Positions 1,191 through 21,730 of a stretch of DNA of 33,593 nt are shown piece after piece; the first letter of the stretch is position 1; each line of letters starts with the position of its first letter. The DNA is taken from IMG/VR virus record IMGVR_UViG_3300017782_000093. One strand, written 5' to 3'. This DNA is from a virus. The translations under genes and the position numbers were made by a program. The notes under the pieces are model-generated. The model saw only the letters and a program-made list of their open reading frames with translations. It was not told the DNA's origin and did not search any database.

Positions 1191-1682
1191 ATGACAAAAC
1201 AACTATTTAAATATAAAAAAATCGTTTACACTCCAGAACAGTTTGAAGAAACTGTAAAGGCTGTTAGACCATTAGTTGATTTATTATTTCAACTTACGCC
1301 ATCAACTAAGAATAAAAATTGGTCAACTTCACATAGTGCTTGTGCAGGTTTGGGCAATCTTGTTCTTGGTGCTTTAAGAAATTCCAATAAAAAAACATTG
1401 TATTGGGAAAAAGTAAGAGGTAATTCTGATCCATCGTTTTCAACAGATGAAAAAGGTGAAAATGAATATCTCGTCGCTTGTAAGAATTATAAATGGAATA
1501 TAAACAATTCTATTGATCTTACATTGATTGATCAGCTAATGACTCACGCAGTCGAAAGCTGTATTGAAAACTTACATATCCAAAAAAATTCTGTTTCTAA
1601 GGATAAGACACCCGAGCAAGTTGTTGCCGAAGAAAAAGAACTGGATAAAGAATATAAAAAAATAGTAAACTTCGATATATAA
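1191..1682 (+). CDS. Hypothetical protein (orphan, moron-like unit)
   Basis: 163-aa ORF with an ATG start, followed 37 nt later by an intrinsic terminator. I recognised no family motif. Confidence 0.7.
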   Translation: MTKQLFKYKKIVYTPEQFEETVKAVRPLVDLLFQLTPSTKNKNWSTSHSACAGLGNLVLGALRNSNKKTLYWEKVRGNSDPSFSTDEKGENEYLVACKNYKWNINNSIDLTLIDQLMTHAVESCIENLHIQKNSVSKDKTPEQVVAEEKELDKEYKKIVNFDI

Positions 1683-1718
1683 ACTTAAAACAAAAATCGG
1701 CATCGAGTCAGCTAAAAG

Positions 1719-1747
1719 GGAGATTGGTAACAGTCTCCTTTTTTTTT
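1719..1747 (+). terminator. Rho-independent terminator
   Basis: Stem GGAGATT (1719-1725)/AGTCTCC (1732-1738, one G-U pair), loop GGTAAC, followed by T9 (1739-1747). Confidence 0.8.
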
Positions 1748-1805
1748 GTATAAAAAAATTTTTTTTTCGCTACACTTCGTTCCGCTAACTTTATTGGAGA
1801 ACATT

Positions 1806-1970
1806 ATGAATAAAACTATCATCATTACATTGCTACTACATCTAATCTTAATTCCATTTGCAGTATATTATCTTCCAACCTTTAATGGTTTATCCTTAAT
1901 GTTATGTTGTGTATGGATTGTTGATTGTTGGTTACTCATAGAATATTGTTATTGGCGCTTACGTCAGTAA
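1806..1970 (+). CDS. Small hydrophobic membrane protein (two predicted TM segments)
   Basis: Internal ATG at 1806, preceded by GGAG (1796-1799). The sequence MNKTIIITLLLHLILIPFAVYYLP...LMLCCVWIVDCWLLIEY is strongly hydrophobic. The upstream extension to 1746 runs through the terminator T-run. Confidence 0.5.
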   Translation: MNKTIIITLLLHLILIPFAVYYLPTFNGLSLMLCCVWIVDCWLLIEYCYWRLRQ

Positions 1971-1985
1971 CAATCTTCAAGTAGT

Positions 1986-2011
1986 GGATTTTTTGGTATC
2001 GCTATCCCAAA
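1986..2011. repeat. Right copy of the inverted repeat (GGATTTTTTGGTATCGCTAT-Y-CCAAA)
   Basis: Reverse complement of 203-228 (20/20 core). Intergenic, upstream of the 2150 operon. Confidence 0.9.
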
Positions 2012-2054
2012 ATTAAAACACTATGCACTATCATCACTATTCCTCATTATGTAT

Positions 2055-2101
2055 CCATATGACTATACAAGATTTCCTTCCCCACAAGTGTAGTCATATG
2101 G
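2055..2101 (+). promoter_or_regulatory. Hairpin with CCTTCCCC-CAAGT loop
   Basis: 11-bp perfect stem CCATATGACTA (2055-2065)/TAGTCATATGG (2091-2101). The loop carries CCTTCCCCACAAGTG (2076-2090), a near copy of 1032-1046. Confidence 0.5.
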
Positions 2102-2149
2102 TTGCATTGTATGTGTAATCAGTAATAGACAATAAACAAAGGAGTAATT

Positions 2150-2470
2150 ATGTCTAAATATCTAAAAACAGATGAACAACAACATCATTATGAAGCTGAA
2201 GTTCACCAACGTAGAATGCACGAACTCAATCGTGTAAACACATTTAGAACTATGTCAAATGAATATCAAGATGTCATACAATCAAAATATTCTGACGATC
2301 TAATATCTCATAATAAGTTTCATTTGGCTATGCATTACTATGGTGTGATGGAGCACTTAACACACGTATGCTTACTTGAAATAGAAAACAAGTTGTATGC
2401 ACCTGAGTACGAAGAGCGTATGAAAGAAATTGCTCACGCTGTAGATGAACTAGAAAAAATTGCTAAGTAA
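2150..2470 (+). CDS. Hypothetical protein
   Basis: 106-aa ORF. Strong SD context AACAAAGGAGTAATTATG (2135-2152). Confidence 0.75.
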   Translation: MSKYLKTDEQQHHYEAEVHQRRMHELNRVNTFRTMSNEYQDVIQSKYSDDLISHNKFHLAMHYYGVMEHLTHVCLLEIENKLYAPEYEERMKEIAHAVDELEKIAK

Positions 2471-2500
2471 CAATACACAGCATAAAGGAGGTGATATGTA

Positions 2501-2764
2501 TTGGCTATAGAAGCACTTGAAGAACGCTATGAGTGGGAGGATAATATGGAACTCTACTCATTGCAGTACCTAATCAAATGTGAATACGAAATGAAAGTAA
2601 TCAACAAATGTATAGGTGCAATCGAAGTGGCGTTGGATTCATGCGAGAGTAAACAGCTTTCGCAAAGTAATTTTGAACACATCACCACTTCTCTCGTCAT
2701 ACTTAAAGAACAAGCAAAGGGACTAGCTGATCTTTTACGAAAGGAAAAGTATGATGTAATATAA
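2501..2764 (+). CDS. Hypothetical protein (TTG start; alternative ATG at 2546)
   Basis: 87-aa ORF. AAAGGAGGTG (2485-2494) lies 6 nt upstream of the TTG. Confidence 0.6.
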   Translation: MAIEALEERYEWEDNMELYSLQYLIKCEYEMKVINKCIGAIEVALDSCESKQLSQSNFEHITTSLVILKEQAKGLADLLRKEKYDVI

Positions 2765-2798
2765 TAATATAAATCTAATAAAAAACAAAGGAGTAATT

Positions 2799-3656
2799 AT
2801 GTTAGATGTATTAAAAGACTACGAGTTTCCAACAGAAATGGTGGAGCTTGAAGCACTAAACAGGACAGATAATTTTGGTAATCAGAACTATGCTGTTCCA
2901 ACTGATATGGCAAGAGCCTGTGTGCGTACTGATACCGGACAAGTTCTTGGTATTCACGGAAGTAAATACAAACCAATATCACACAAAGATGTTGTAGATA
3001 GAGTAATGGAGGGTGTTGAAAAGACAGGCTTCACTAACTACAGCACTAAGATACAAGTGCACGAGGCAGGTGCGAAAATGCGTGGGTCTGTTACCTTCAA
3101 TGATTTGGTAGTTGAACCACAGAAAGATGATATCATAAAATTTCGTATCAACTTCTTCAATTCATATGACCAATCGTGGGCATTTGCTACAATATGTGAT
3201 GGCTTACGCTTATGGTGTATGAATGGTTGTACTACACCTGTCAATGCTTCTACTTTACGATTCAAACATACAACAAATGTAAACATTCAAAGTATTACAG
3301 ATCGTGTAAAGACAGGTGTTGATTTCTTTATGGACTCTAGTATGGACTATGCTCAATGGGCACATATCAAGTTACATCCACATTCTGTGCAAAGATTTTT
3401 AGAACAAACTGTAGCTAAAACATTCAAGCGTTCTTCTAACTCAATACCATTCAATGTAACAAGAACTGAAACATTACTTGCAGGTTTTGATCGTGAGACA
3501 CGAACACTTGGTAGAACTAAATGGGCGTTATACAATGCTCTTACTTATTGGTCTACTCATACTGACGGAGAACGTGGACACGCTATTCGTAAACGCAGAG
3601 AAGATGAAGTAGCTAAAGCACTTGGTTCAAAACAATGGCAAGAACTTGTTGCATAG
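2799..3656 (+). CDS. DUF932/DUF945-like phage/plasmid protein
   Basis: 285 aa. The N-terminal pattern ..VRTDTGQVLGIHGSKYKPISHKDVVD.. and overall length are typical of the DUF932 family. It has the same 18-nt SD/start context as 2150. Confidence 0.65.
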   Translation: MLDVLKDYEFPTEMVELEALNRTDNFGNQNYAVPTDMARACVRTDTGQVLGIHGSKYKPISHKDVVDRVMEGVEKTGFTNYSTKIQVHEAGAKMRGSVTFNDLVVEPQKDDIIKFRINFFNSYDQSWAFATICDGLRLWCMNGCTTPVNASTLRFKHTTNVNIQSITDRVKTGVDFFMDSSMDYAQWAHIKLHPHSVQRFLEQTVAKTFKRSSNSIPFNVTRTETLLAGFDRETRTLGRTKWALYNALTYWSTHTDGERGHAIRKRREDEVAKALGSKQWQELVA

Positions 3657-3698
3657 TAGAATATAAATAGTATAATAGTAGTACGAAAGGAAGATGTT

Positions 3699-3860
3699 AT
3701 GGAATATAATGACACCGAAGTTACAGCAAGACTAGGTGAATCTGAATGCATTAATGAGTTTAGATTTGCTGTAAAACCACTATTAAATAAATTAACAGAC
3801 AAACAATTTCAAGATGTAACTCAAGAGTTATGGAATGAATATTGGTCTGAACATATATAG
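3699..3860 (+). CDS. Small hypothetical protein (53 aa, not in the ORF track)
   Basis: Hand translation gives MEYNDTEVTARLGESECINEFRFAVKPLLNKLTDKQFQDVTQELWNEYWSEHI*. GAAAGGAAG lies upstream. It fills an otherwise empty gap. Confidence 0.45.
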   Translation: MEYNDTEVTARLGESECINEFRFAVKPLLNKLTDKQFQDVTQELWNEYWSEHI

Positions 3861-3963
3861 AATCAACTGTAAGGTTTATTGTTGTACCTTATATTGATTA
3901 GGTTTGGGCGTACCTAGTTATGAGCAAACGCCCACATTAATCCATTAAACAAAGGAGTAAATT

Positions 3964-4329
3964 ATGGATATGCATTTTGACCGTCAAACATTAAAGTTTG
4001 GCAAATCAACTAACACGTGTGAGTTTATTGACTTTCACCTTGATAACCCAAGAGTTTGGGATCTGTACCTATCGTTTGCTACAGATATGGCTCAGCTTGG
4101 ACATAAAAGATTATCAAGTGAAATGCTTATTAATCGTGTTCGTTGGGAAACTATAATTGATACTACTGATAAACAGTTCAAGATAAATAACAACCACAAA
4201 CCTTTTTATGCAAGGCTTCTCTTGTCTTTACCACGATTTAAAAATACAAAGTTCCTCGAGGTTAGACAAAGTTGTGCTGATGACTTATCATATTCCGAGT
4301 GTGAAATACTGCTCAGTAAATATGTATAA
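3964..4329 (+). CDS. Hypothetical protein
   Basis: 121-aa ORF with SD AACAAAGGAGTAAATTATG. Confidence 0.75.
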   Translation: MDMHFDRQTLKFGKSTNTCEFIDFHLDNPRVWDLYLSFATDMAQLGHKRLSSEMLINRVRWETIIDTTDKQFKINNNHKPFYARLLLSLPRFKNTKFLEVRQSCADDLSYSECEILLSKYV

Positions 4330-4804
4330 AGTTATATTGCAAGACCTACAGACAAGGCGGCAACATCTTGGTATATCATCTCAAGAAGTATCTGAAAAGA
4401 TTGGTGTATCGGATAGCCTTGTTTCATTATGGGAATGTGGAAAGAAACAACCAAGTATGATTAACTTTATTAATTGGTGTAGTGTACTCGGTTTCAATCT
4501 TATTCTTAATGTTCATCAACAACAAATACCAAAGTCGTTTGTTCCTAGTTACGATACTAAGCAATGGATCATATCAGAGTTTGGAGAAAGGTATAATTAT
4601 GACAACGAACTTAAAATCTTTATCAACCATTATCGGGCAGGTGGAACAGTTAAATCAGATTGGCAATACGCTTTCCGATCTTGGTTACTCCGTGCCAAAA
4701 AATTCACGACCAATACAACTCAAACCTCCGAAGGTACTAAAGAACGCCGTGAACGAATCAACAATGTCTTTGCTATCAGCAATCAAAGAGAGCCAAGTAG
4801 ATGA
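4322..4804 (+). CDS. XRE-type helix-turn-helix DNA-binding protein with C-terminal extension
   Basis: The internal ATG at 4322 overlaps the stop of the preceding gene. LQTRRQHLGISSQEVSEKIGVSDSLVSLWECGKKQPSMINFINW is a classic HTH_3/XRE motif. The C-terminal ..SDWQYAFRSWLLRAKKF is reminiscent of DnaT-like/replisome-organiser tails (weak). Confidence 0.7.
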   Translation: MYKVILQDLQTRRQHLGISSQEVSEKIGVSDSLVSLWECGKKQPSMINFINWCSVLGFNLILNVHQQQIPKSFVPSYDTKQWIISEFGERYNYDNELKIFINHYRAGGTVKSDWQYAFRSWLLRAKKFTTNTTQTSEGTKERRERINNVFAISNQREPSR

Positions 4805-5204
4805 GTATATATCTACAGAAAACAAAGCAGTACAATATTTAGATTGTCTACGCAGAACATTGAAAATTTGTCAACATATGATGTTACCTGCAGATCCTAA
4901 ATATATTGGCACAGCAATAGAAATGTGTGCATCAACTTTCGGGTGTGATGTGCCTAACGAACTTGGGCTTAAGATGTATGGACAAATCTTAGCCAAGTAT
5001 CCCCAATGTGTTATTGAAGAATATACATTGGAATTAATAAAAACCTATAAGTATAGAAGATTGCCTGTACCTGCAGACTTTCTAGCTATCTATGAACCAC
5101 CTTACGAACACGGAATGTTGTTCATAGAAAATACTTATTTAAAAACAAGAAGGTTTGCAAATATAGTACAAGAGTGCTATAAAATAGATACGAAAGGAGT
5201 ATAA
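4599..5204 (+). CDS. Hypothetical protein (start uncertain: 4599 or 4764)
   Basis: ATG 4599 follows GGAGAAAGG but gives a 206-nt out-of-frame overlap with 4322..4804. ATG 4764 gives a 41-nt overlap. Confidence 0.6.
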   Translation: MTTNLKSLSTIIGQVEQLNQIGNTLSDLGYSVPKNSRPIQLKPPKVLKNAVNESTMSLLSAIKESQVDEYISTENKAVQYLDCLRRTLKICQHMMLPADPKYIGTAIEMCASTFGCDVPNELGLKMYGQILAKYPQCVIEEYTLELIKTYKYRRLPVPADFLAIYEPPYEHGMLFIENTYLKTRRFANIVQECYKIDTKGV

Positions 5205-5205
5205 T

Positions 5206-6015
5206 ATGCAACCAAAGAAAAAAGTAGAACGACCTAAAACTATTGGTGGTTCAGATGCTACACGCATTATGGAAGGTGATTGGCACACACTCTGGCTAGA
5301 GAAGACAGGGCGTCAAGAACCTGCTAACTTAGATCGGGTGTTACCTGTTCAGATCGGCATTGTTACAGAAAAACTTAACAAGCATTGGTTTTGGCAGGAA
5401 ACAGGACATAAACTATTATCACATAGGGTGCAACACGATTTCACAGATGGATTCCGGCACGCTAGTCTTGATGGTATAGCAAATGTTAGTGACAAATTTT
5501 GTGTCCTAGAGTGTAAGCATACCAATGCCAACAACACTTTAGAAAATGTTATACGAAAATATATGCCTCAGCTACAACATTATATGCAAGTTGCAATGAT
5601 GGATAGAGCGTACCTCTCAGTAATTTTTGGTAATATGAGATACGAATGGTGTGAAATACAATTAGATAATGAATATGTAAAAATGTTATATGAAATGGAA
5701 TCAACCTTTTGGAATGAACACGTAATTAAAGATAAAGAACCAGAAAAATTAAAAGCAGAAAAATTAATACAAGATTTAACAGATACAATAAAAGTAAACG
5801 ATATGATTCGTATTGATATGGATACTAACAATGAGTTTGTAGCTAATGCACATACTTGGCGTGAAACAAAAATATCATACGATCAACACCGAGCAGTTGG
5901 TAAGGTATTAAAAGAACTAATACCTGCCAACTGTCGTCTTGCTGAAGGTGCAGGTATTAAAATATCAAGAACAAAAGCAGGACATTTAACCATCAAAGAA
6001 AACAAAGGAGGTTAA
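5206..6015 (+). CDS. YqaJ-like / lambda-Exo-type recombination exonuclease (PD-(D/E)XK)
   Basis: The motifs IGGSDATRIMEG..W..LWLEKTG, ASLDGI and VLECKH match the YqaJ viral recombinase signature. Confidence 0.85.
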   Translation: MQPKKKVERPKTIGGSDATRIMEGDWHTLWLEKTGRQEPANLDRVLPVQIGIVTEKLNKHWFWQETGHKLLSHRVQHDFTDGFRHASLDGIANVSDKFCVLECKHTNANNTLENVIRKYMPQLQHYMQVAMMDRAYLSVIFGNMRYEWCEIQLDNEYVKMLYEMESTFWNEHVIKDKEPEKLKAEKLIQDLTDTIKVNDMIRIDMDTNNEFVANAHTWRETKISYDQHRAVGKVLKELIPANCRLAEGAGIKISRTKAGHLTIKENKGG

Positions 6016-6016
6016 T

Positions 6017-6604
6017 ATGATGGGACACATTGAACCAAGAGTAAAGAAAATACTACAACAGTATGATCTAAAACCCGAACACGCATTGTGGGAACTCAAA
6101 CGTGGAGGTAAAGCAACACTTGTAATGCTACACAAATACTGTGAACTTGTAGGAGCTAAAGCAGGTATTGTTATTGATGACATTGTAGAAGTAGAAACAA
6201 ACTCTGCACAAGGTATTGCAGTAGTTAAATGCTATGCACACAATGACAAAATGAAAGTCATTACCTACGGAGAAGCTAGTCCAAAAAATAGTAAGGTTGC
6301 CTATCCATATGCAATGGCAGAAAAACGTGCAGTAGACAGAGCAATACTAAAACTTGTTGGATTGCATGGCTTTGTATATTCAGAAGATGAACTTGACACA
6401 AGTAATGAGAAGTTAGGTTCAGCAGATGATGATGCAATCAAATCATTTATTAGTAACATCGAAGGGAGTAAAACTGTTAAGCAGGTTACAGGTTACTTTG
6501 AAATGAACAAGGTAAACATAGCTAAAGCTAAGAAGTCCAATCCCGGATTGTATCAAATGGCAATAGCTAAATATGAATCTAAACGAAAGGAATTAAATGT
6601 ATAA
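6017..6604 (+). CDS. Putative single-strand annealing protein (Rad52/Sak-like)
   Basis: It sits between the exonuclease and SSB. GEASPKN...YPYAMAEKRAVDRAILKLVGL resembles the G-[DE]-A ... A-x-x-R-A-x-x-R-A-l motif of Rad52-type phage SSAPs. Confidence 0.55.
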   Translation: MMGHIEPRVKKILQQYDLKPEHALWELKRGGKATLVMLHKYCELVGAKAGIVIDDIVEVETNSAQGIAVVKCYAHNDKMKVITYGEASPKNSKVAYPYAMAEKRAVDRAILKLVGLHGFVYSEDELDTSNEKLGSADDDAIKSFISNIEGSKTVKQVTGYFEMNKVNIAKAKKSNPGLYQMAIAKYESKRKELNV

Positions 6605-7022
6605 CAAGATTCAAATCATTGGTAATCTTGGTGCTGACCCCGAAGTAAAACAAACGGGGGCAGGCACTAACTACGCCATCTTGTCTGTAGCTACAAACAG
6701 AGTAGTGAAGGGCGAAAAAGAAACTGAATGGCACAAGTGTGTCGTTTGGGACGATAAAATAGCAGACATCTTAGCCAAATATACTAAGAAAGGAAGCAGA
6801 GTTTTATTGGAGGGAAGACTAACATATAGAAAATGGCAGACAGATACAGGAGAAGAAAGAGTAAAAGCAGAGATACACCTTGATAGGTTTAACTCTGAAA
6901 TGAAACTTATGGATTCTAAGTCTGACAGCAATGTTTCAACTATTACATCACCTACTGCAAACCAAACAGTACCAAGTGACGTAGAGGCGGGACCTATTAT
7001 TGAAGATGATGTGCCATACTAA
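6597..7022 (+). CDS. ssb: Single-stranded DNA-binding protein
   Basis: OB-fold signature MYNKIQIIGNLGADPEV...TEWHKCVVW...KKGSRVLLEGRL..RKW, plus the acidic C-terminal tail IIEDDVPY. Confidence 0.92.
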   Translation: MYNKIQIIGNLGADPEVKQTGAGTNYAILSVATNRVVKGEKETEWHKCVVWDDKIADILAKYTKKGSRVLLEGRLTYRKWQTDTGEERVKAEIHLDRFNSEMKLMDSKSDSNVSTITSPTANQTVPSDVEAGPIIEDDVPY

Positions 7023-7237
7023 TGTTTAAAATATTTATAGTAACACTATGGATAGAGTATCAAGGCAAACTTTGGGTTAAGTATGCCTTGCCACTCCAAG
7101 GTAGATGTGATGTTGTTACTTGGTGGGGAGTCCAAGAACAATATAAACATTCACCTATCAATATTGTAGCAATGAAATGTACACGAGTAAAAGATTTTAA
7201 ATTAGATCGGAGGATATATAATTATGACAAAAAATGA
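7022..7237 (+). CDS. Possible small hypothetical protein
   Basis: 71-aa ORF with a TAATG overlap on the ssb stop. No motif recognised. It could instead be non-coding spacer. Confidence 0.3.
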   Translation: MFKIFIVTLWIEYQGKLWVKYALPLQGRCDVVTWWGVQEQYKHSPINIVAMKCTRVKDFKLDRRIYNYDKK

Positions 7238-7421
7238 ATCACGTGTTTATAAATTTGTTGATGACTTTATTAGTATGTATAAATTTAGTCCATCATACAA
7301 AGAAATAGCAGAACAGCTTAACTTTGCCTCACCCTCACAAGCACACAAAATATGTATGCAGTTGGTAAAGAAAGGTAAATTAACAAAAGGCGAGGGTGCC
7401 AGAAACTTGGAGATATTATGA
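7224..7421 (+). CDS. LexA N-terminal DNA-binding domain-only protein (winged helix)
   Basis: SPSYKEIAEQLNFASPSQAHKICMQLVKKGKLTKGEGARNLEIL aligns by eye with E. coli LexA [42 protein letters not shown]. At 65 aa it has no S24 peptidase domain or cleavage site. Confidence 0.7.
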   Translation: MTKNESRVYKFVDDFISMYKFSPSYKEIAEQLNFASPSQAHKICMQLVKKGKLTKGEGARNLEIL

Positions 7422-7603
7422 AAAAGAAAACGCAAACACAACACTTAATAGCACAACTATATTGGGATCATGAGCGATTAAGCACGGCAGGGCAAAAAAC
7501 TCTCAACGACTTAGCTAGATTATGGGATGTACCTACAGAAGAAGATATGGTAAACGGACATTCAAATGACCTACCATCAGATGTGGAGCCAACCAATGGG
7601 TAG
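7418..7603 (+). CDS. Hypothetical protein
   Basis: 61-aa ORF. ATGA overlap with the preceding stop. Confidence 0.55.
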   Translation: MKKKTQTQHLIAQLYWDHERLSTAGQKTLNDLARLWDVPTEEDMVNGHSNDLPSDVEPTNG

Positions 7604-7976
7604 ATTTAGCAAGAAAAAAGGATACAGAGTTGAGAACCAAATTGTAAATCAAATCAAAGCATATGGAATACAAGCAAGACGACAACCAATGAGTGGAGCA
7701 ATACCAGATTTTCCATATGATATTGAGATACGCAAAGAACCATTTCACAAATTAAGTGTAGAAGTTAAAGCACGAGCAAACGGCGAAGGATTCAAAACCC
7801 TCGAGCGTTGGAAAGACAATGCGGATCTTTTGTGCCTACATAGAGATAGAGCAGACACACTTGTTTGCTTGAATTTAGAATTGTTTTTGGATATACTTTC
7901 GATCACAGATGATACAATATATGAACAACAAGAATCAACTCGTAGACGTAAACGGAAATCCACTAAAAGATCATAA
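7596..7976 (+). CDS. Hjc-like Holliday junction resolvase / PD-(D/E)XK nuclease
   Basis: KKGYRVENQIVNQIKAYGIQARRQPMSG...DIEI....LSVEVKAR fits the G..ER......G....R...SG...D(I/L)......(E)VK pattern of archaeal-type resolvases. The start is taken at ATG 7596, which overlaps the upstream stop. Confidence 0.6.
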   Translation: MGRFSKKKGYRVENQIVNQIKAYGIQARRQPMSGAIPDFPYDIEIRKEPFHKLSVEVKARANGEGFKTLERWKDNADLLCLHRDRADTLVCLNLELFLDILSITDDTIYEQQESTRRRKRKSTKRS

Positions 7977-8192: not shown

Positions 8193-8579
8193 TTATGGTT
8201 TTTTGTTTTTGTTTTGCCATTGTTGTCCAATTTTTTCTGCACTACGCCCAACAGTATATCCACCAACACCAATCATTATTATATCGAGCAATGAGTTTTG
8301 TACAGACTCAGGAATATTCGGCGCAGTAAAACCAAACCAATGAGCAACCATTAGTCCTGCAAACAAAAGCATCATTATAGGTCGCCAACTTCTTTGCAAC
8401 CAAGTACCTTGTGCTTCTAATTGTATAACGGTTGCGGCGGCCTCTATTTCTTTAAGATCGCCAGTAATAATTTTGTGTTGTAATTCAGCTTTAATCTTTT
8501 CTTTTTCTGCTTTAGATGTAATTACTTTATCTACAGTAGAAAATATTGATTTAGCTATAGGTGCAAGTAAAGGTAACAT
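8193..8579 (-). CDS. Holin (3-TM, gene-transfer-agent type)
   Basis: The amphipathic N-terminus KAEKEKIKAELQ...AQGTWLQRSWRPIMMLLFAGLMVAHWF, followed by TM segments, resembles the 'holin of 3TMs for gene-transfer release' family. It is the last gene of the lysis cassette. Confidence 0.7.
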   Translation of the reverse strand: MLPLLAPIAKSIFSTVDKVITSKAEKEKIKAELQHKIITGDLKEIEAAATVIQLEAQGTWLQRSWRPIMMLLFAGLMVAHWFGFTAPNIPESVQNSLLDIIMIGVGGYTVGRSAEKIGQQWQNKNKKP

Positions 8580-8980
8580 TAGATTATATTATTATAAAAT
8601 TTATGATCGCCAATAACGACCACAGGTTTTTGATCTTGTGCCCACTTGGGCATAATGTTAGTAGTATGATAATGTGTAGACCCATTAGTATTATCTTGTA
8701 ACTGTCCAGTCATTACCAGATATGCTATACCTAATAACTTTAAATAATCCTCATCAACTTTAGGTAAGTTTTCCATTTTCTGTTTATTTGGATCTCCTTC
8801 ATTCCAACAACTAAACTGCCACTCTTTTAAACACACTTCTTTTGGTGTATCTCCGTACCACCTTCGAGCCTCTGCTCTATTCTTTATTACACTAGCTACA
8901 GCTATTTGCCCACTAGTGTCTTGGTTGCGAGATTCACCCCACATTGTTTTTGCCATTATGTCTAAATCTTCATTTGTCAT
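8579..8980 (-). CDS. Endolysin, SleB-like cell-wall hydrolase (Hydrolase_2)
   Basis: MAKTMWGESRNQDTSGQIAVASVIKNRA....QFSCWN matches the SleB/CwlJ-type signature (GEar.e...g..aVa.Vi.NR...QFs.w). Confidence 0.85.
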   Translation of the reverse strand: MTNEDLDIMAKTMWGESRNQDTSGQIAVASVIKNRAEARRWYGDTPKEVCLKEWQFSCWNEGDPNKQKMENLPKVDEDYLKLLGIAYLVMTGQLQDNTNGSTHYHTTNIMPKWAQDQKPVVVIGDHKFYNNII

Positions 8981-9435
8981 ATTATTTCTAATAACTTTAA
9001 CTCATAATAAAGAAAAAGCAATACCCCTACTACTGCACCTACAGATATAATAATAGTCTTTCTTCTTTCTGCAAGTCTTTCTGCCTCTTTAATCTGTCGT
9101 TTTTTTTCTGCTCTTACAGATGCAATCTCTGCTTGTAATCTTTCCCATTGACCCGGTGAACCATACAATGCAAATATTTCTCGCAATTCATTTCTCATAT
9201 TGCGTAGTTCTTCTTTACGAAGATGAGCTTGTATTGCTTGTGCTTCAACTGAACTAAATCTGCCAAATAAACTTCTCCCTTTTTTTTCTGCTTTAGCTTC
9301 AATGTTAGCTTCGCCTATTGCCCACTTAGATATATATCCAGACATAGAACTAAGGTCTTTACCTATTTTTATACCTTGCATTATTACCGAGTGAGCAGAT
9401 TTTACAGCGGCAAATGCAGAAATTGGATCAATCAT
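8977..9435 (-). CDS. Coiled-coil protein with C-terminal TM anchor (possible lysis accessory/spanin-like)
   Basis: 152 aa. Charged coiled-coil centre with hydrophobic C-terminus IIISVGAVVGVLLFLYY. 4-nt overlaps with both neighbours in the lysis cassette. Confidence 0.35.
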   Translation of the reverse strand: MIDPISAFAAVKSAHSVIMQGIKIGKDLSSMSGYISKWAIGEANIEAKAEKKGRSLFGRFSSVEAQAIQAHLRKEELRNMRNELREIFALYGSPGQWERLQAEIASVRAEKKRQIKEAERLAERRKTIIISVGAVVGVLLFLYYELKLLEII

Positions 9436-9629
9436 TTTAATAAATTAAGTATTATAGTTATCAACAGGGCAATAATAGACCCACTTGATGACCATAGCAA
9501 TACCTCTAGCTTTTTTATTCGTGAATCAACAGAGTCTAATCTTTGAGTTGTCATCTGTCTATATATAGCACATTCTCTTTCATGAGCTTCCATCTCTGAT
9601 GCTACATCTTTTATAGTACGAGTATCCAT
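9432..9629 (-). CDS. Small C-terminally TM-anchored protein (possible lysis accessory)
   Basis: 65 aa. C-terminal LLWSSSGSIIALLITIILNLL. First gene of the overlapping 4-gene cassette. Confidence 0.35.
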   Translation of the reverse strand: MDTRTIKDVASEMEAHERECAIYRQMTTQRLDSVDSRIKKLEVLLWSSSGSIIALLITIILNLLK

Positions 9630-9632
9630 CCT

Positions 9633-10238
9633 TTAAGTATTTTTCAAAGCCGTAACTGTTAATATAGGTTGTACATAAGAAAGTCCTGGACCACTACCAG
9701 ATGCACCTGTACCATCCCATTCAACCAGAGCGTGTGCTGATGCCTCATAAGTACCACTATATTCTCTAGCTTGTATTTTCATTGTTTTATTAGAAGTCCA
9801 AGAGGCAAGTCTTGGTAAAGTTGTATCAGCACTACCACCAATTTCAATCATATATCCAAACTCTAAAAAGGTTCTTAAATGTTGTCCAAAAACATTTCTT
9901 CTAAGTGTAGTTACTTCGTCAGAGTCTATAAAAAATTTAAAGTGTGCTAAAGGATAATCATCTGTTCTGGAAAAATACAAACTTAAATTGTAAAAAACTC
10001 TTGTTGCATTACTTGGTGGAGTGTATGTAAAGGTTGAACCTGTTACATCAGCGTAAGAGGTAGTAAAGTCTTGAACTGCTGTAACATTAGGCATAGTGTA
10101 TGTACCACTAGGAACTGTTACTGAACGACCATCACAAGGTGATTTTATAACTTCTATAATATTACTACCTGTACTTATTGCGCTAGGTAATGCAGTTACA
10201 CTAGATAAAGTATTATTGTTTGCTCTAATTATTGCCAT
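9633..10238 (-). CDS. Tail fibre distal protein, D1-type domain (paralogue of the C-terminal half of 12612..13496)
   Basis: NIIEVIKSPCDGRSVTVPSGTYTMPNVTAVQDFTTSYADVTGS..YTPP...KFFIDSDEV...SWTSNKTMKIQAREY aligns along its length with residues ~123-294 of the 294-aa protein. Confidence 0.7.
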   Translation of the reverse strand: MAIIRANNNTLSSVTALPSAISTGSNIIEVIKSPCDGRSVTVPSGTYTMPNVTAVQDFTTSYADVTGSTFTYTPPSNATRVFYNLSLYFSRTDDYPLAHFKFFIDSDEVTTLRRNVFGQHLRTFLEFGYMIEIGGSADTTLPRLASWTSNKTMKIQAREYSGTYEASAHALVEWDGTGASGSGPGLSYVQPILTVTALKNT

Positions 10239-11210
10239 CTATCCCACCTTCCATATTCTTATATTTGCATATATTTCTACTAAACTAGCATTTGTCGCAA
10301 TACCAGAAGCAGAACCAGATTGAATGTAATGTCTTAATTCAAAAACTTTTTGAGCCGATATAGTAAATCTTCCTTTTAACATACTTGGACTTGTAGTGTA
10401 ATAACTAGCATGGGAGTTTGATGAAAGACCTACTAGAGTATAACTTGAGTCTGTTGTATTATACAAACTTATTTTGTGCCTTGCATTTACATACCCATTT
10501 GCTTCTGCTTCAGCATAATATGTTCCACTCGGTAAAGTAATTTGATTACTACCAAGAGATGCTCCTGTAATTTCATTTGTTTTTACTGTTGTTAATTCTC
10601 TTGTATTTTGTCCTGTAGAAAAAGTTTGTGGAGAAGTATTATTAGCTTTCTCATCCACTAGATGCAATAATGCACTTCCAAAAACTCCTGCACTTCCAAA
10701 AGATAGATTACCACTACCATCTGTAATTAATGCTTTGTTTGCACTTGGTGCTGTGCTAGGCAAGGTAAGTGTATAACTTTGTGCCGCACTATGAGGCGGA
10801 CCTTTGATTGTAACACCATGGGAGTTTTGTTCGCAATTTAATTTTATTGCTCCAGAATCTGATCCTGCTCCCTTTGATATAATTATAGGTGCAGTAGCTA
10901 ACTTATCATTTGTAACTGTATTGTCGCTAGGTGTTCCCACAGACAAAACATCGCCTAAAGCTAAAATATAATTTATAATATCACCCGAAACTAAATTTGA
11001 AGCGAAGGTAAGCGTACTGCCTGAAACTGTAAAGCTATCTTGAGGTGCTTGAATAACACCATTCAAACTTACAATAAGATGATTTGCACTAGCAGGACTA
11101 TAGTTAGCCGATCCACTTTGTAAAGTATAAGCGGCTTGACCATTAACTACTGTAATAGCATCTAGCTTTTTATATGCTCCGATTTTTGGTTGCTTACCAA
11201 TGTAAGGCAC
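10239..11210 (-). CDS. Tail fibre protein (MPYIG N-domain + fibre repeat + D2-type C-domain)
   Basis: The N-terminal MPYIGKQP.. is paralogous to MPYLGSTP.. of 12612..13496. The middle IKLNCEQNSHGVTIKGP...TLTLPSTAPSANKALITDGSGNLSF is a common phage fibre motif. The C-terminal ~148 aa are paralogous to 12097..12612. Confidence 0.75.
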   Translation of the reverse strand: MPYIGKQPKIGAYKKLDAITVVNGQAAYTLQSGSANYSPASANHLIVSLNGVIQAPQDSFTVSGSTLTFASNLVSGDIINYILALGDVLSVGTPSDNTVTNDKLATAPIIISKGAGSDSGAIKLNCEQNSHGVTIKGPPHSAAQSYTLTLPSTAPSANKALITDGSGNLSFGSAGVFGSALLHLVDEKANNTSPQTFSTGQNTRELTTVKTNEITGASLGSNQITLPSGTYYAEAEANGYVNARHKISLYNTTDSSYTLVGLSSNSHASYYTTSPSMLKGRFTISAQKVFELRHYIQSGSASGIATNASLVEIYANIRIWKVG

Positions 11211-11500
11211 TACTCACCATCCTTCGGATATTTATCTTTAACAGCTTTAATTGCATCTTTCCAAGTAGTTGTACTGCTAACAGTATCGTGATACTGCATA
11301 TCTAACTGATCTGGAATTGATGGATATTCTTGCTCTCTCTTTTCTGCATATGTCAACTCTGGTGGAGTTGGATTAGCAAAAGAGCCATCACTTTGTTTTA
11401 TTTGACCGCATACTACATTATCAGAAACTTCCTCAAAACCATCTTCTTGGTAAGGTTGTTTCTGTGTAACTACGTTATCAACTATTTTTACCCAAGCCAT
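11210..11500 (-). CDS. Small fibre-associated protein (XkdW-like motif)
   Basis: 96 aa. YPSIPDQLDMQYHD....W.DAIKAVKDKYPK resembles the XkdW-type motif seen next to phage fibre genes. Strong SD AAAGGAGAG. Confidence 0.4.
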   Translation of the reverse strand: MAWVKIVDNVVTQKQPYQEDGFEEVSDNVVCGQIKQSDGSFANPTPPELTYAEKREQEYPSIPDQLDMQYHDTVSSTTTWKDAIKAVKDKYPKDGE

Positions 11501-11518
11501 GCTACTCTCCTTTCTTTT

Positions 11519-12112
11519 TTAGTTAACATAAACCCATCCTGTATGCACATACTTAGTTCCATTAATAGGAGGATTACCTCTATGAACATAAGGAAAATGT
11601 GCAGGTGCAATAAGAACTCTACCTTGTTTTGGTTTTACTCTTTTTTGCATATTTAAAAATTCTGTTTCTCCTGCTTCAAAATCATCATTTAAATAAGTTA
11701 TAAAAAATAATATTCTTTTAAATCTTTTTTCATCATGTTCTATATGCCATACATGATATCCCTCAGTTGGTTTTGTCTTTTGTAACTTTGTTGTTTCGAA
11801 ACTAAATTGTGCTTCTTTATAATAATCAGCAATACCTGTAATGCTTTTATAAGAATTCCATGCTATACCTACACCATTAAATATTTTTTTTAAGGCTTCT
11901 TCCCATTCTTCAACTGTTGTTTGCTCAAGAAAATAAGATGTGTCTTTTTTTATATTTTCACTTACACCCTCTGCCATAAGTCTTGTATAAGTTTGATCTA
12001 GAGATATTTTGTTATCTAAAAAACTCATAGCACCCTTACAATCTTGTTTAGAAATAATATTATCAAAAACACCAATATAATTTTCAATAAGATTTGTCAT
12101 GCTGTTTTCCAT
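11519..12112 (-). CDS. 2OG-Fe(II) oxygenase superfamily protein (prolyl-hydroxylase-like)
   Basis: HVWHIEHD (H-x-D iron ligands), FEAGETEF and PAHFPYVHRGNPPINGTKYVHTGW (distal His / basic residue) fit the double-stranded beta-helix dioxygenase pattern. The alternative ATG at 12100 gives an ATGA overlap with the upstream stop. Confidence 0.7.
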   Translation of the reverse strand: MENSMTNLIENYIGVFDNIISKQDCKGAMSFLDNKISLDQTYTRLMAEGVSENIKKDTSYFLEQTTVEEWEEALKKIFNGVGIAWNSYKSITGIADYYKEAQFSFETTKLQKTKPTEGYHVWHIEHDEKRFKRILFFITYLNDDFEAGETEFLNMQKRVKPKQGRVLIAPAHFPYVHRGNPPINGTKYVHTGWVYVN

Positions 12113-12612
12113 ATCTGTACATCTGTAAATACATTTATTTGACTATTGTTTGCTCCAGAACCAAGACCATATGTTCCTTTTGAATGTGAAGCATAATGTC
12201 TAATTTCAAATACTTTTTGTGCTGATATAGTAAATCTACCTCTTACGTCAATTAATTGATTAACCATACTTAAATTAGGATGAACATATCCTGTGTTACC
12301 AACTAAAGTAAATGAGCTGTCGCTTGTATTGTAAAGATAAGGTTGTATATATCCAGACAAAGATGAGGGTACTCTTGCTTCTAAATAATATGTACCACTT
12401 GGTAAAGTAATTTGATTAGAACTTAGACTTGCACCACTAATCTCATTTGTTAAAACAGTATTTAAATCTCTTGTATGTGTTGTTCCTGCTGATGATGCTC
12501 CTCCACTAGTATTAGTTGCCTTTTCATCTCTTACATGAAGTAAAGCTGTTTCGTAAGCTCCTTGTCCTACACCACTTGCTAACGAATCTGATAATATTTT
12601 ACTTAATGGCAT
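12097..12612 (-). CDS. Tail fibre distal protein, D2-type domain (paralogue of the C-terminus of 10239..11210)
   Basis: LLHVRDEKATNTS...LTNEISGASLSSNQITLPSGTYYLEA...LYNTSDSSFTLVG...GRFTISAQKVFEIRHY...IWK aligns with residues ~178-323 of the 323-aa protein. Confidence 0.7.
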   Translation of the reverse strand: MPLSKILSDSLASGVGQGAYETALLHVRDEKATNTSGGASSAGTTHTRDLNTVLTNEISGASLSSNQITLPSGTYYLEARVPSSLSGYIQPYLYNTSDSSFTLVGNTGYVHPNLSMVNQLIDVRGRFTISAQKVFEIRHYASHSKGTYGLGSGANNSQINVFTDVQIWKTA

Positions 12613-13496
12613 TATGAATCCTTTAAAGCTATAATTGTTAAAGTTGGTACTGATACAGTTGTTGTATCACTAGCTCCCTCCCACAGTTTTAAAGAATGAC
12701 AAACTGCTGTATTACTACTATTATATTCTCTTGCTTGAATCTTTAATGTTTTAGCAGATGTCCAAGAAGTTAAATCACCTTGTGCTGTACTTGCTGAACT
12801 TGCATTACAATTAATTGTGTATTCAAAATGATTTTTAATTGCTAATGTATATCCATAAAGTGTTTCTCTTGCATCTGTTACTTCATCTGAATCAATAAAA
12901 AACTTAGTATGTAAAGCTCCATATGTTGTATCATAACCCATATGAAAATAAAATTTGTATATAACTCTTGTAGTTCCTGTCGGTGGAGTATACGATATTG
13001 ATGACCCAGTTAAATCTGCATAAGATGTTGTCATAGATTGCACAGCGGTTACATCTGCCATAGTATAGTTACCACTAGGTACTGTAACTTGAGTGCCATT
13101 ACAAGGACTTGATAACATTTCAATTACATTTGAACTACTTATAGGTGCAAAACTATTATCACCTCGTAAAAATGTTGTATTGTTTTTTGTACCTGTAGCT
13201 GATAATTCTCCTAGACCTACACTACCACTAGCAGGATTTATTGTACCTACTGCTCTTCCTAAATAGATACAATACATATCGTCTGAACCAGATGTTGCCG
13301 CTGTAAGAGTTAATGCAGTACCAGATGCACTATAAGCATAAGTTGGCTCTTGTCTTACATTATTAATAAATAAAGCTATGTCGTTAGCTGAACTAACACT
13401 CTGAGATAATGTGTAGCTTGTAGTCGCACTTGTAGAAAAATCTTGTTTAGCTAGTGTCTGAAACAATGTTGATGGTGTTGACCCTAGATAAGGCAT
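12612..13496 (-). CDS. Tail fibre protein (MPYLG N-domain + D1-type C-domain)
   Basis: N-domain paralogous to 10239..11210. Fibre motif TTFLRGDNSFAPI. C-terminal ~170 aa paralogous to 9633..10238. Confidence 0.75.
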   Translation of the reverse strand: MPYLGSTPSTLFQTLAKQDFSTSATTSYTLSQSVSSANDIALFINNVRQEPTYAYSASGTALTLTAATSGSDDMYCIYLGRAVGTINPASGSVGLGELSATGTKNNTTFLRGDNSFAPISSSNVIEMLSSPCNGTQVTVPSGNYTMADVTAVQSMTTSYADLTGSSISYTPPTGTTRVIYKFYFHMGYDTTYGALHTKFFIDSDEVTDARETLYGYTLAIKNHFEYTINCNASSASTAQGDLTSWTSAKTLKIQAREYNSSNTAVCHSLKLWEGASDTTTVSVPTLTIIALKDS

Positions 13497-13840
13497 TAGG
13501 TTATCTCCATAATTGACAATGCAACATCTAATGCCGTTCCGGCACTTGCTTGTGCTTTAATAACATCAGTAGTTTGCACGACAACCTTTTGTCCTCCAAA
13601 CACCTCAAGTGTAGTATTAGCAGGTATATCTACTCCTTTTAACAAAAAGACATCTGCATTTGTTTCTGTATCAGAAGTATTACTTACTAATTGTACATCT
13701 GCAGTTATTGCACTAGTTGTTTTATTGCTTAATGCCATACCTAATACAACTGTGCTTGTGCTCGAAGGCACAGTATAGATTGTATCTAAAGAACTATTGC
13801 TTACACTTGCTTTTGTTTTTACTTTAAATGTATTTGCCAT
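13496..13840 (-). CDS. Small beta-rich virion-associated protein (function unknown)
   Basis: 114-aa ORF, Ser/Thr/Val-rich, with SD AGGAAA. Translationally coupled (1-nt overlap) to the downstream fibre gene. Confidence 0.6.
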   Translation of the reverse strand: MANTFKVKTKASVSNSSLDTIYTVPSSTSTVVLGMALSNKTTSAITADVQLVSNTSDTETNADVFLLKGVDIPANTTLEVFGGQKVVVQTTDVIKAQASAGTALDVALSIMEIT

Positions 13841-13853
13841 AATGTTTCCTATA

Positions 13854-14678
13854 TTAACCTAAAGCTATAGCTAATGCAACAGGGTCAGGTGCTGTGTTAG
13901 TTATCGTTACTGTATCAGTTGCACTTACTGATACCTGCATATTAGTACCTGCCGTTAATGTTAGTGTATTTCCATCTACTATTGTTTGTGATGTTGAGCC
14001 ATCTGTAATTGTAAAACTATTAAATGTACCACTACCTGCAGGGCCTGTTGCACCTGTTGCTCCTTGTGGTATTCCTAGTGTAAGCACACCTGTTGTAGAA
14101 TTATAAGAACCTGTAGCTGATGCACCTGCTGATAATGTTGTTGTAGTTACACCACCAGATATTGGAACAGCACTAGTTGTTACATTACCTGAACCATCAA
14201 ATGCAATAACCTTATTATTTCTGTCTGTAGGTATTGTTAATGTAGCACTAGGACTATGATCATTTAATTTTATTGTTCTATTTAATTTATCGTCGTGCTC
14301 GGCAAATATTGCTATGTTTTTATCTAATTCTGTATTTAATGCTGTTACATCAAATGTTCCATTAACAGGAAAATCTGTTGTTCTCTCTATATCTATTTCT
14401 CGTATAATTACTATTTTTTGTCCTGCAGTATGACCACTGCCAAATGTAATAGTTGCTCCTGTACCAAACTCATAAGCACTATCGCTTGACGAATTAGTAG
14501 CTGTTACTTTGTATGTTGTTGTAGTAGTAGGATTAGCATTGTATGTAGCTAACGAACCATCTACATATACTTTGAGATCAGCAATAGCAAAAAATTCAAA
14601 CGTAATAGTATATGTTGTTTGACTAGCTGTTGCAGTAAAACTGTGTCTAGGTGTATTTTGTGCTGACACTAATGTCAT
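13854..14678 (-). CDS. Tail fibre/adaptor protein with T7 gp17-like N-terminal domain
   Basis: YTITFEF....DLKVYVDG........Y......ITF......G.KIVIIREIDIERTTDFPVNGTFDVTALNTELD fits the T7 tail-fibre N-terminal (tail-attachment) pattern. Short collagen-like GATGATGPAGSG. It follows the gp16-like gene, as in T7. Confidence 0.75.
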   Translation of the reverse strand: MTLVSAQNTPRHSFTATASQTTYTITFEFFAIADLKVYVDGSLATYNANPTTTTTYKVTATNSSSDSAYEFGTGATITFGSGHTAGQKIVIIREIDIERTTDFPVNGTFDVTALNTELDKNIAIFAEHDDKLNRTIKLNDHSPSATLTIPTDRNNKVIAFDGSGNVTTSAVPISGGVTTTTLSAGASATGSYNSTTGVLTLGIPQGATGATGPAGSGTFNSFTITDGSTSQTIVDGNTLTLTAGTNMQVSVSATDTVTITNTAPDPVALAIALG

Positions 14679-21241: not shown

Positions 21242-21730
21242 TTACAAGTCCGCTATCTTAAATCCAAGTCCTATTGCTTCACCAACTGCATCTCCTGCTG
21301 ATGCCCATAGTCTTGTTCGTCTTGCTGATAATTGTGCTTGCCCTCTTATTCCTGCCGCTTGTCCTTCCATAACAGCTTGTCTTGCTCCAAGCATAGCATT
21401 ATTAGCCCGTTCCATTCCCATTAGTCTAGCATTATTTACATCTTTACTTGTTGCTTTTTTATTTGCTTGTAAAAACGCACCATAACTTGGTGAATTTATT
21501 TCTACACCACTAGCACTAAATGCTGCTAAGTTTTTTTTTTTAAGTTTTTGTGCTTGCTCTTTAATATCATTTGCTCTTTGTTGTGCCGCTAACATTTCTG
21601 CTTTTGATTGTTCTTCGTATTGCTTTTTCTTTTCCATAGCCATACGTTGCTCCATTTCCATTTGAGCCTTTATATATTTAGATTCATCACTAAATAAGTT
21701 GCCAAAAAAACCTAGTATTGCACCACACAT
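21242..21730 (-). CDS. Internal virion protein (gp14-like by position)
   Basis: 162 aa. Coiled-coil centre and Gly/Ala-rich C-terminus. It follows the tail tubular B-like gene. Confidence 0.5.
   Translation of the reverse strand: MCGAILGFFGNLFSDESKYIKAQMEMEQRMAMEKKKQYEEQSKAEMLAAQQRANDIKEQAQKLKKKNLAAFSASGVEINSPSYGAFLQANKKATSKDVNNARLMGMERANNAMLGARQAVMEGQAAGIRGQAQLSARRTRLWASAGDAVGEAIGLGFKIADL

Follow-up and report, generated by a model that had tools for sequence, protein, structure and literature searches.

In phages KP32, KP34, G7C, K1-5 and SP6, an anchored receptor-binding protein (RBP1) is accompanied by a second one (RBP2), which docks either on RBP1 or on an adapter by means of a conserved peptide at its N-terminus that can be as short as MALxxLV (PMC6872550); docking of this kind has been experimentally validated (PMC13352976). 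In pelagiphages, proteins with C1q domains have been reported next to the tail fibres, where they combine conserved N-termini with hypervariable heads (Mizuno et al., 2014, PMC3909814), and the tail-fibre region of HTVC010P-type phages is known to be hypervariable (PMC10504331). Here we describe four genes, A, B, C and D, at positions 9,633 to 13,496 of the viral record IMGVR_UViG_3300017782_000093, whose whole 33,593-nucleotide (nt) stretch we refer to as the window. We consider it probable that the four genes encode receptor-binding proteins built from interchangeable parts, which are displayed together as homotrimers with B docked on A and D docked on C.

SAR11, the hosts of pelagiphages, are the most abundant marine bacteria, and to our knowledge host recognition by pelagiphages is essentially unknown, the tail-fibre region being known mainly as a hypervariable 'island'. 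The whole 33.6-kb window is a podovirus genome of low GC content (about 34%). Its best DNA matches are the Pelagibacter phages HTVC106P, 035P, 203P, 019P and 010P, at just 65-72% identity over short stretches and with a synteny common to them. The source is thus named here as an uncultured HTVC010P-type pelagiphage-like marine podovirus, and the region is its host-recognition module. On the minus strand, the module comes downstream of the genes for the internal virion proteins (803 and 1385 amino acids, aa) and runs in the order p274, p114, A, B, a 2-oxoglutarate (2OG)-Fe(II) oxygenase gene, the small open reading frame (ORF) s_96, C, D and a lysis cassette. The four genes and their parts are as follows.

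13496..12612, minus strand: A, 294 aa, begins MPYLG.
13212..13496, minus strand: A residues 1-95, the AN anchor, a small beta domain with a match to phrog_18673 'tail fiber'.
12615..13142, minus strand: A residues 119-294, D1 head of subtype a, fused to AN; 48% identical to D, modelled as a jelly roll.
12612..12097, minus strand: B, 171 aa.
12562..12612, minus strand: B residues 1-17, the pepA peptide MPLSKILSDSLASGVGQ, conserved downstream of AN fibres whatever the head.
12100..12561, minus strand: B residues 18-171, D2 head of subtype a, free-standing; 49% identical to the C-terminus of C, with a match to the tail-fibre C-terminus family phrog_24210.
11210..10239, minus strand: C, 323 aa, GTG start, begins MPYIG.
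10896..11210, minus strand: C residues 1-105, the CN anchor, similar to fibres of cultured pelagiphages.
10689..10895, minus strand: C residues 106-174, shaft or neck, called a 'fibre repeat' in the preliminary description; matches phrog_31104 over residues 99-181.
10242..10688, minus strand: C residues 175-323, D2' head of subtype b, fused to CN; C1q/TNF-like model.
10238..9633, minus strand: D, 201 aa.
10167..10238, minus strand: D residues 1-24, the pepC peptide MAIIRANNNTLSSVTALPSAISTG, conserved downstream of CN fibres with many heads.
9636..10166, minus strand: D residues 25-201, D1' head of subtype b, free-standing; 48% identical to the head of A.

A preliminary description of this DNA had proposed two fibre cassettes with reciprocally permuted distal domains, and much of it was borne out. 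All four ORFs are present on the minus strand at the sizes claimed. The D1 domains align between A residues 122-294 and D residues 25-201 (48% identity, E=1e-51), the D2 domains between C residues 175-321 and B residues 18-169 (49% identity, E=7e-41), and the N-domains of A and C are related over their N-terminal ~100 residues (30% identity, E=1e-5). The reciprocal layout itself was reproduced with profile hidden Markov models. The term cassette needs qualification: the four proteins are real, but two genes intervene between the pairs, the oxygenase (11519-12112) and the 96-aa ORF (11210-11500). A near-identical nucleotide run shared by the D2 paralogues also exists, but it had been placed 4 nt out of register. 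As quoted (10511-10548 versus 12385-12422), only 8 of 38 positions match, while the corrected run (10515-10548 versus 12385-12418) matches at 32 of 34 positions inside a 101-nt block of 78% identity (10506-10606 versus 12376-12476). The run encodes NQITLPSGTYY, a nearly invariant motif of the D2 family, and it therefore reflects protein constraint rather than recent gene conversion.

Two JGI samples each yielded a circularly permuted contig of 33,593 bp with the gene order 294/171/193/96/323/201 aa, and three Logan assemblies have an identical order. The layout is therefore not an assembly artefact, having been recovered in five independent assemblies, across which B and D are unchanged. Spacing between the genes is tight: TAATG overlaps link p114 with A and A with B, the stop of s_96 overlaps the GTG start of C as TAGTG, B has an AAAGGA Shine-Dalgarno sequence ahead of its start, and the ATG of D abuts the TAG of C, with the Shine-Dalgarno sequence AAGGTGGG lying within the 3' end of C. 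At 10236-10241, the TAG of C and the ATG of D follow one another in frame, and a read-through product would have 525 aa, comprising anchor, D2 and D1. Such a C-D fusion is unsupported, as the spacing and frame of this junction vary by 0-10 nt in relatives and D has its own Shine-Dalgarno sequence. Scans for promoters and terminators gave sites no more numerous than in shuffled sequence, and a transfer RNA scan found none.

B and D have no anchor domain. The claim that each is a distal domain alone did not hold, however: both begin with a short conserved peptide of 17-24 aa. We examined 241 related loci for the frame of genes in which these peptides occur and found a recurrent one, consisting of p114, an AN fibre, a pepA protein, (the small ORF s_96), a CN fibre and a pepC protein. 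The cultured phages HTVC106P (gp52/gp51 and gp49/gp48) and HTVC019P (gp40/gp41 and gp43/gp45-47) are relatives that share this frame. In 80 loci retrieved with the CN domain, the protein after the AN fibre usually starts with MAITKIQSESLNLAD, MAITKIIADS or MPLSKILSDS (pepA), and the protein after the CN fibre with MAIIRANNNTLSSVTALP or MALNFANNNSLSAIT (pepC). The pepC peptide, of which MAIIRANNNTLSS is an exemplar start, is also carried by HTVC106P gp48 and HTVC010P gp30. When unique proteins were counted, AN fibres were followed by pepA in 47 cases and by pepC in 5, and CN fibres by pepA in 4 cases and by pepC in 78 (Fisher p=1.4e-25, shared ancestry ignored). Unique intervals between p114 and CN numbered 73, with both AN and pepA in 35, AN only in 6, pepA only in 0 and neither in 32 (p=9e-15, shared ancestry likewise ignored). 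That pepA never occurs without AN is the asymmetry expected of a pepA protein that needs the AN fibre.

The 165 unique peptide-bearing proteins fall into at least 19 BLAST-level head families, 6 of which occur with both peptide types. Single-linkage clustering joins pepA and pepC in one superfamily of 267 proteins, and the two peptides are thus the ends of a continuum. In fused fibres the anchor is followed by a shaft repeat, which both peptides resemble (for example VSTAKIVDGAVTSAKLASGVG versus PLSKILSDSLASGVG), so the free-standing proteins look like fibres that start just after the anchor. At least three tandem pepC-type proteins (200-217 aa) follow the CN fibre in HTVC019P (gp45-47) and HTVC010P (gp30-32), represented by loci L001 and L003, and in loci L013-L019. 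Given these tandem arrays in relatives, the one partner per fibre of the window is the minimal version of an expandable array.

The heads are not tied to these positions. We compared slot combinations in loci fetched with D1 and D2 profiles, and either head was able to fill any of the four slots in other contigs, as in the following examples.

The window: AN+D1, pepA+D2, CN+D2, pepC+D1.
L097/L162: AN+D2, pepA+D2, CN+other, pepC+D1.
L105: AN+D2, pepA+D1, CN+D2.
L087: AN+other, pepA+D1, CN+other, pepC+D1.
L096: AN+D1, pepA+D1.
L004: AN+D2, pepA+other, CN+D2, pepC+other.

Among 240 matches listed, AN was fused to D1 in 8 and to D2 in 18, CN was fused to D1 in 6 and to D2 in 28, D1 was free in 84 and D2 in 69, and 27 had other N-termini. 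The survey thus upheld the proposal that modules are shuffled, with head combinations varying over related loci and recombination found at head junctions, but reciprocity is nothing special among the many other combinations. The free-slot head varies independently of the head fused upstream, so D1 and D2 are not an obligate pair.

Identities between heads follow the same pattern. The heads of the window have relatives that are 80-96% identical in other contigs and in different slots, whereas their own paralogues are 48-49% identical. The head of A is 91-92% identical to heads on the pepA proteins P0179-P0182, 80% identical to the free pepA-D1 protein of L105 and 77% identical to pepC-D1 proteins. 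The head of C is 85-91% identical to the free pepA-D2 proteins P0005, P0008 and P0010, and the head of D is 60-62% identical to pepA-borne heads and 58% identical to AN-fused heads elsewhere. P0005, P0008 and P0010 occupy slot 2 of a frame that reads AN+D2, pepA+D2', s_96 (97% identical), CN+other, a PF16778 ORF and pepC+D1. We considered whether P0005 and P0008, which join a B-like peptide to a C-like head, are deletion recombinants between B and C and rejected this, as all elements of the frame are retained in their contigs.

The closest relative, IMG/VR UViG_3300032087_002049, is 93% identical in nucleotide sequence from B through residue 176 of C. Identity ends exactly where D2' begins, and the breakpoint relative to L097 falls at the first residue of D2'; at this position the relative has a different head and a 102-aa ORF. 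In the same contig, the anchor of A is 80% identical and its head is replaced. As the closest relative differs at the head junctions, the reciprocal pattern is the product of combinatorial head shuffling. The reciprocal D1/D2 layout is therefore one draw from population-wide head swapping, with no demonstrated functional meaning of its own, and the two copies of each domain are, as judged from these comparisons, independent acquisitions of diverged subtypes rather than the outcome of an internal swap. The 42-kb contig IMGVR_UViG_3300032087_002049 carries two fibre modules, L162 (1-9398; AN+D2, pepA+D2, ...) and L225 (30278-42167; AN+D2 of 273 aa, pepC of 186 aa, s_96). The presence of two different modules suggests that two related phages were joined in the assembly, as a chimera or a concatenate.

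To describe the heads, we used AlphaFold2 models of A and C, built as monomers with family alignments. The model of A has a mean predicted local distance difference test score (pLDDT) of 87.6, with D1 above 90, and that of C has a mean of 79.7, with the D2' head above 90. Foldseek matched D1 to the C-domain of Chlamydia Pgp3, the N-terminal lectin of BC2L-C, Photorhabdus PLTL and the C-domain of Bdellovibrio Bd2734 (target-normalised template-modelling score, TM, 0.63-0.68). D2, taken from the C model, matched the BclA-type F-ENA / F-BclA tip (0.76), the C1q domain of Caprin-2 (0.73) and the TNF family, the C1q/TNF/BclA-type matches as a whole having target-normalised TM values of 0.6-0.76 at probability 1.0. 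The best PDB match of the whole C model was the tail fibre gp24 of cyanophage A4 (9k09_A, E=1.8e-8), and matches in BFVD were C1q- and collagen-like viral proteins and cyanophage tail fibres. Sequence identity of the heads to their structural matches is 7-19%. On these models, D1 and D2 are both predicted to be C1q/TNF-like jelly-roll heads of 150-175 aa. This agrees with the fibre or receptor-binding nature proposed earlier, as does the match of A and C to PHROG tail-fibre families.

Membership of a curated C1q/TNF family was not found, A, B, C and D having no significant Pfam matches; in a scan of A-D, p114, p274 and the oxygenase, solely the oxygenase passed a Pfam gathering threshold. D1 and D2 were rejected as detectable homologues of each other, the hhalign probability being 12% and the alignment covering only a 13-column T[VL]PSGTY motif. 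They share a fold class and the T[VL]PSGTY strand without demonstrable sequence homology. Database searches returned 737 homologues of D2, both free (160-210 aa) and fused (260-300 aa), and 211 of D1, again free and fused. None of these relatives has a Pfam domain, and where they are named at all they are 'hypothetical protein' or Tara gene-call strings. D2 heads are also found behind quite different N-termini (MSELKVNKVTPRSGTT, MATLFVDKIDPQSG), at the end of proteins of 400-490 aa and beside ORFs of 1000-1600 aa (among others, proteins P0006, P0007, P0011, P0016 and P0031 and loci L172, L189, L215 and L219). The occurrence of D2 behind different N-termini indicates a head family common to other, probably non-podovirus, marine phages.

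The anchors, unlike the heads, are stable: AN and CN are 60-85% identical from locus to locus, with C-termini differing. Both belong to PHROG tail-fibre family 18673. AN is 62% identical to HTVC106P gp52 and 45% identical to HTVC019P gp40, CN is 62-63% identical to HTVC010P gp27, HTVC019P gp43 and HTVC106P gp49, and CN has 463 relatives in viral contigs. In the models, AN has a pLDDT of 90-95 over A residues 20-80, and the shaft of C has a low value (~50), as is expected for a trimeric shaft modelled as a monomer. A joint AN/CN profile matches gp28, a fibre of cyanopodovirus P-SCSP1u, at residues 582-669 (E=9e-16; PDB 8i4m chain e), and the tandem domains 112-173 and 182-247 of a Klebsiella K1 depolymerase (E=3e-11; PDB 9k4a), for which a literature search on PDB 9K4A returned nothing relevant. 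In P-SCSP1u gp28 (1079 aa), the AN/CN-like domain is internal and is followed by the same GTPSxNTVT motif. An internal position there and a tandem one in the Klebsiella protein indicate a reusable fibre junction domain and not only an N-terminal anchor. A, C and p274 had no Pfam match at E<=1, PF03906 (the T7 gp17-type N-terminal domain) included, and the AN/CN profile aligned insignificantly (4.6 bits) with the N-terminal domain of P-SCSP1u gp28.

Heads of the C1q/TNF-like type are normally homotrimeric. In the arrangement that we favour, A, B, C and D would each form their own homotrimer. A and C would be short tail fibres, each with an N-terminal anchor of ~95 aa that binds the tail, a short neck and a C-terminal head, and B would piggy-back on A, and D on C, via their position-specific N-terminal peptides. 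A conserved peptide that is linked to the upstream fibre type points to a complex of two homotrimers, a fibre and its docked partner. With all four proteins incorporated, the virion would present four putative receptor-binding heads simultaneously, namely two subtypes each of D1 and D2, with 48-49% identity between subtypes. The layout arose by recombination at the neck-head junctions, which carry GSNIxE in D1 and G-x-F/Y-E-x-x-LLHV in D2, and such recombination moves heads across the phage population between fused and free-standing slots, sometimes with their chaperone gene. A broader proposal, which we advance tentatively and hold to be possible rather than probable, is that the module is a four-slot 'plug-and-play' platform, in which two orthogonal pairs (AN-pepA and CN-pepC) show one pool of C1q/TNF-like heads, either fused or docked through a peptide of roughly 20 aa, with heads moving between the two modes.

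Several points weigh against this arrangement. All the folds described here are monomer predictions, and the p-values for the association of peptides and fibres are overstated, the loci being non-independent through shared ancestry and synteny. Conservation of the peptides could partly reflect a structural neck and not a docking surface. A has just 294 aa and no separate detectable T4gp10-like branching domain, and T4 gp10 was not among the PDB matches listed for the AN/CN profile. Finally, three anchor-like proteins (p274, A and C) would be in competition for the six fibre sites of a T7-like tail.

In a different mode of attachment, B and D would dock not on the fibre next to them but on some other conserved component, with p274, p114 and the nozzle (an 873-aa ORF, 21730-24351) as candidates, and the virion would carry four independent appendages. 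The lack of a recognisable branching domain in A beyond its anchor would fit this, as would the conservation of p274 and p114 directly upstream and the K1-5/SP6-type phages, which carry both spikes on a short adapter protein (PMC6872550). We nevertheless regard it as unlikely, given that AN fibres are found without pepA but pepA is never found without them, that peptide type tracks fibre type, and that p114 and CN are both present in the 32 intervals lacking AN and pepA. That B and D are non-structural, serving as leftover or 'spare' head cassettes for recombination, as assembly chaperones or as decoys, seems to us very improbable. In favour of this are the missing anchor domain, the movement of heads from slot to slot, and the YqaJ-like exonuclease and single-stranded-DNA-binding protein (SSB) encoded in the window, which could support recombination. 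Against it, both ORFs are intact, each has a Shine-Dalgarno sequence and a start codon of its own and is coupled to the gene upstream, the N-terminal peptides of B and D are strongly conserved over hundreds of proteins, and both were recovered without change in independent assemblies. Chaperone-type genes, moreover, are separate entities in these loci (the PF16778 ORFs of 72 and 102 aa, and s_96), and B and D themselves match tail-fibre families or nothing, and no chaperone family.

The preliminary description had the fused and free D1 and D2 domains co-assemble into heteromeric fibre tips, with A+B and C+D as alternatives. The genes of each pair are adjacent and translationally coupled, and each pair consists of one D1 and one D2. 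Both heads are, however, predicted to be of the C1q/TNF-like type, which typically forms homotrimers; the pairing is not conserved, relatives having D2+D2, D1+D1, D2+D1, or D1 or D2 with unrelated heads; and the hhalign comparison gave D1 and D2 no profile-level homology or complementarity. As to alternation, all genes lie on one strand and are tightly coupled. Inverted repeats in the region are short and imperfect only (<=31 nt, 74-94% complementary), with none flanking the cassettes, and a scan of the ten plus-strand ORFs of the early region (1191-7976) revealed no invertase. Invertible cassettes of the Mu G segment / P1 C segment type were rejected on these grounds, and co-assembly into alternative heteromeric tips is in our view very improbable. 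The dual receptor specificity suggested with it survives in part: several specificities per virion are plausible, but if all four heads are displayed it would be fourfold, not dual. We give still less credence to an origin within this genome, in which one cassette was duplicated and the two copies then exchanged their distal domains reciprocally; in its favour one could cite the two paralogous pairs, their direct orientation and their short near-identical stretches. This origin is rejected because of the pattern of head identities, with the closest matches lying in other contigs and other slots, not between the paralogues; in addition, AN and CN are two old lineages, conserved separately in cultured pelagiphages, and the closest relative differs by single-head replacements. 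Homotrimeric fibres with docked homotrimeric partners, assembled by head exchange among phages, thus remain the arrangement that we prefer.

The remaining genes of the module are as follows.

13854..14678, minus strand: p274, tail- or tail-fibre-like, matching phrog_1640 'tail protein' and HTVC010P gp22/gp23.
13496..13840, minus strand: p114, which opens the module, 54% identical to HTVC106P gp53, annotated as a virion structural protein.
11519..12112, minus strand: 2OG-Fe(II) oxygenase, 197 aa, PF13640 (E=3e-9), phrog_61.
11210..11500, minus strand: s_96, a 96-aa ORF matching phrog_9114 and phrog_1787, PHROGs to which no function is assigned.

The p274 gene directly follows the gene for the 1385-aa internal virion protein, and p114 precedes the AN fibre in most loci. 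PDB sequence searches with p274 and p114 returned nothing informative; p274 is a possible alternative docking partner. The oxygenase gene, which overlaps the 3' end of B by 16 nt, is an auxiliary insertion into the fibre module rather than a component of the fibre. The close relative L097 has it too; L163, L105 and L246 lack it at this position. The 2OG-Fe(II) oxygenase superfamily has been listed among the genes of pelagiphage 'metaviromic islands' (PMC3909814).

ORFs like s_96, some 90-115 aa long, occur in many loci (L163, L172, L190 and L246, for example). Of the unique D2-ending genes, 37 of 66 have one immediately behind them, compared with 2 of 70 D1-ending genes and 17 of 123 other fibres; large fibres (400-720 aa) in contigs without the AN/CN frame are included. 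From its distribution, s_96 is a candidate assembly factor, perhaps specific to D2 heads. In relatives, the ORF that comes after a D1-ending gene is often one of 70-72 aa (L010, L084, L086-L091, L094 and L096), matching PF16778, Phage_tail_APC (E=1.6e-8). A 102-aa PF16778 ORF follows a CN+other fibre in L246 (4723-5031), and L097 has a 102-aa ORF in the same position (5316-5624). In the window, tblastn found no PF16778-type gene, despite its two D1 heads.

The lysis cassette lies right after D (8193-9629, minus strand) and comprises a 65-aa ORF, a 152-aa ORF, a 133-aa Hydrolase_2 protein (PF07486) and a 128-aa GTA_holin_3TM protein (PF11351). The early region (5206-7022, plus strand) encodes the YqaJ-like exonuclease (269 aa), an adjacent unassigned 195-aa protein and the SSB. 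This set could be a Red-like recombination system that promotes head exchanges at short homologies.

These observations give order to the hypervariable island, which can be described as a scaffold of two anchor types and two peptide types bearing a limited pool of swappable C1q/TNF-like heads, some of which are common to proteins with other N-termini. Should the docking model be true, it would provide testable rules for predicting host range from metagenomes, and it would extend the principle of an anchor plus a docking peptide from enterobacterial podoviruses to a distant marine group. Should the platform reading be true as well, heads would be moving between modes in some of the sea's most abundant viruses.

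Among known systems, the pelagiphage 'metaviromic islands' (PMC3909814) are alike in phage group, neighbourhood, small proteins with C1q-like heads and a 2OG-Fe(II) oxygenase. That study and the one of HTVC010P-type phages (PMC10504331) cover variability and recruitment, but not the anchor and peptide classes, their pairing, or the same head being fused in one phage and free in another. The gp24 fibre of cyanophage A4 is attached at the adaptor-nozzle junction through its N-terminal domain, one of whose three copies is directed outward; this domain is reported to be similar to the XD2 domain of CBA120 TSP4 (PMC12002296). A4 gp24 (PDB 9k09) is made up of a tail-binding domain at the N-terminus, a stem and a jelly-roll binding domain at the C-terminus, as is predicted for C; unlike the window, A4 has only one type of fibre and lacks a partner protein. 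P-SCSP1u gp28 (PDB 8i4m; PMC10575957) shares a domain homologous to AN/CN followed by G-T-P-S-x-N-T-V-T, but carries it internally (582-669). Bacterial TNF-like lectins and tips (the BC2L-C N-terminal domain, PLTL, Bd2734 and Pgp3) have a trimeric TNF-type jelly roll like the predicted fold of D1, but at just 7-11% identity, which says nothing on ligand or family membership.

The nearest likeness is to the Klebsiella phages KP32 and KP34 and the E. coli phages G7C and K1-5/K1E/SP6. These, like the phage described here, are podoviruses with variable RBP genes directly after the internal virion proteins and with C-terminal modules that are exchanged horizontally. As in those anchor-branched systems, the first RBP here has a conserved anchor and a variable C-terminus, and the second is anchor-less and begins with a peptide. 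KP34 comes close in detail, with its anchor-less second RBP in the next gene and the peptide MALxxLV, compared with MA[IL]x[KR][ILA] here. Unlike in those systems, no separate T4gp10-like branching domain is detectable here, and docking is deduced from sequence. The small heads of C1q/TNF-like, lectin type also differ from the beta-helical depolymerases of the Klebsiella and E. coli RBPs, a difference that is not essential to the architecture. Exchange of RBP domains, branching by anchor plus peptide and variability of the pelagiphage fibre region are thus already known. What appears to be new, being undescribed in the literature searched, is the organisation: two related anchor types, each with its own peptide class, bear heads that are either fused or free, so that where KP32, KP34, G7C and K1-5 provide the model of an anchored protein and its docked partner, the window carries the genes for such a pair twice, their anchors and peptides being of two kinds that can be told apart.

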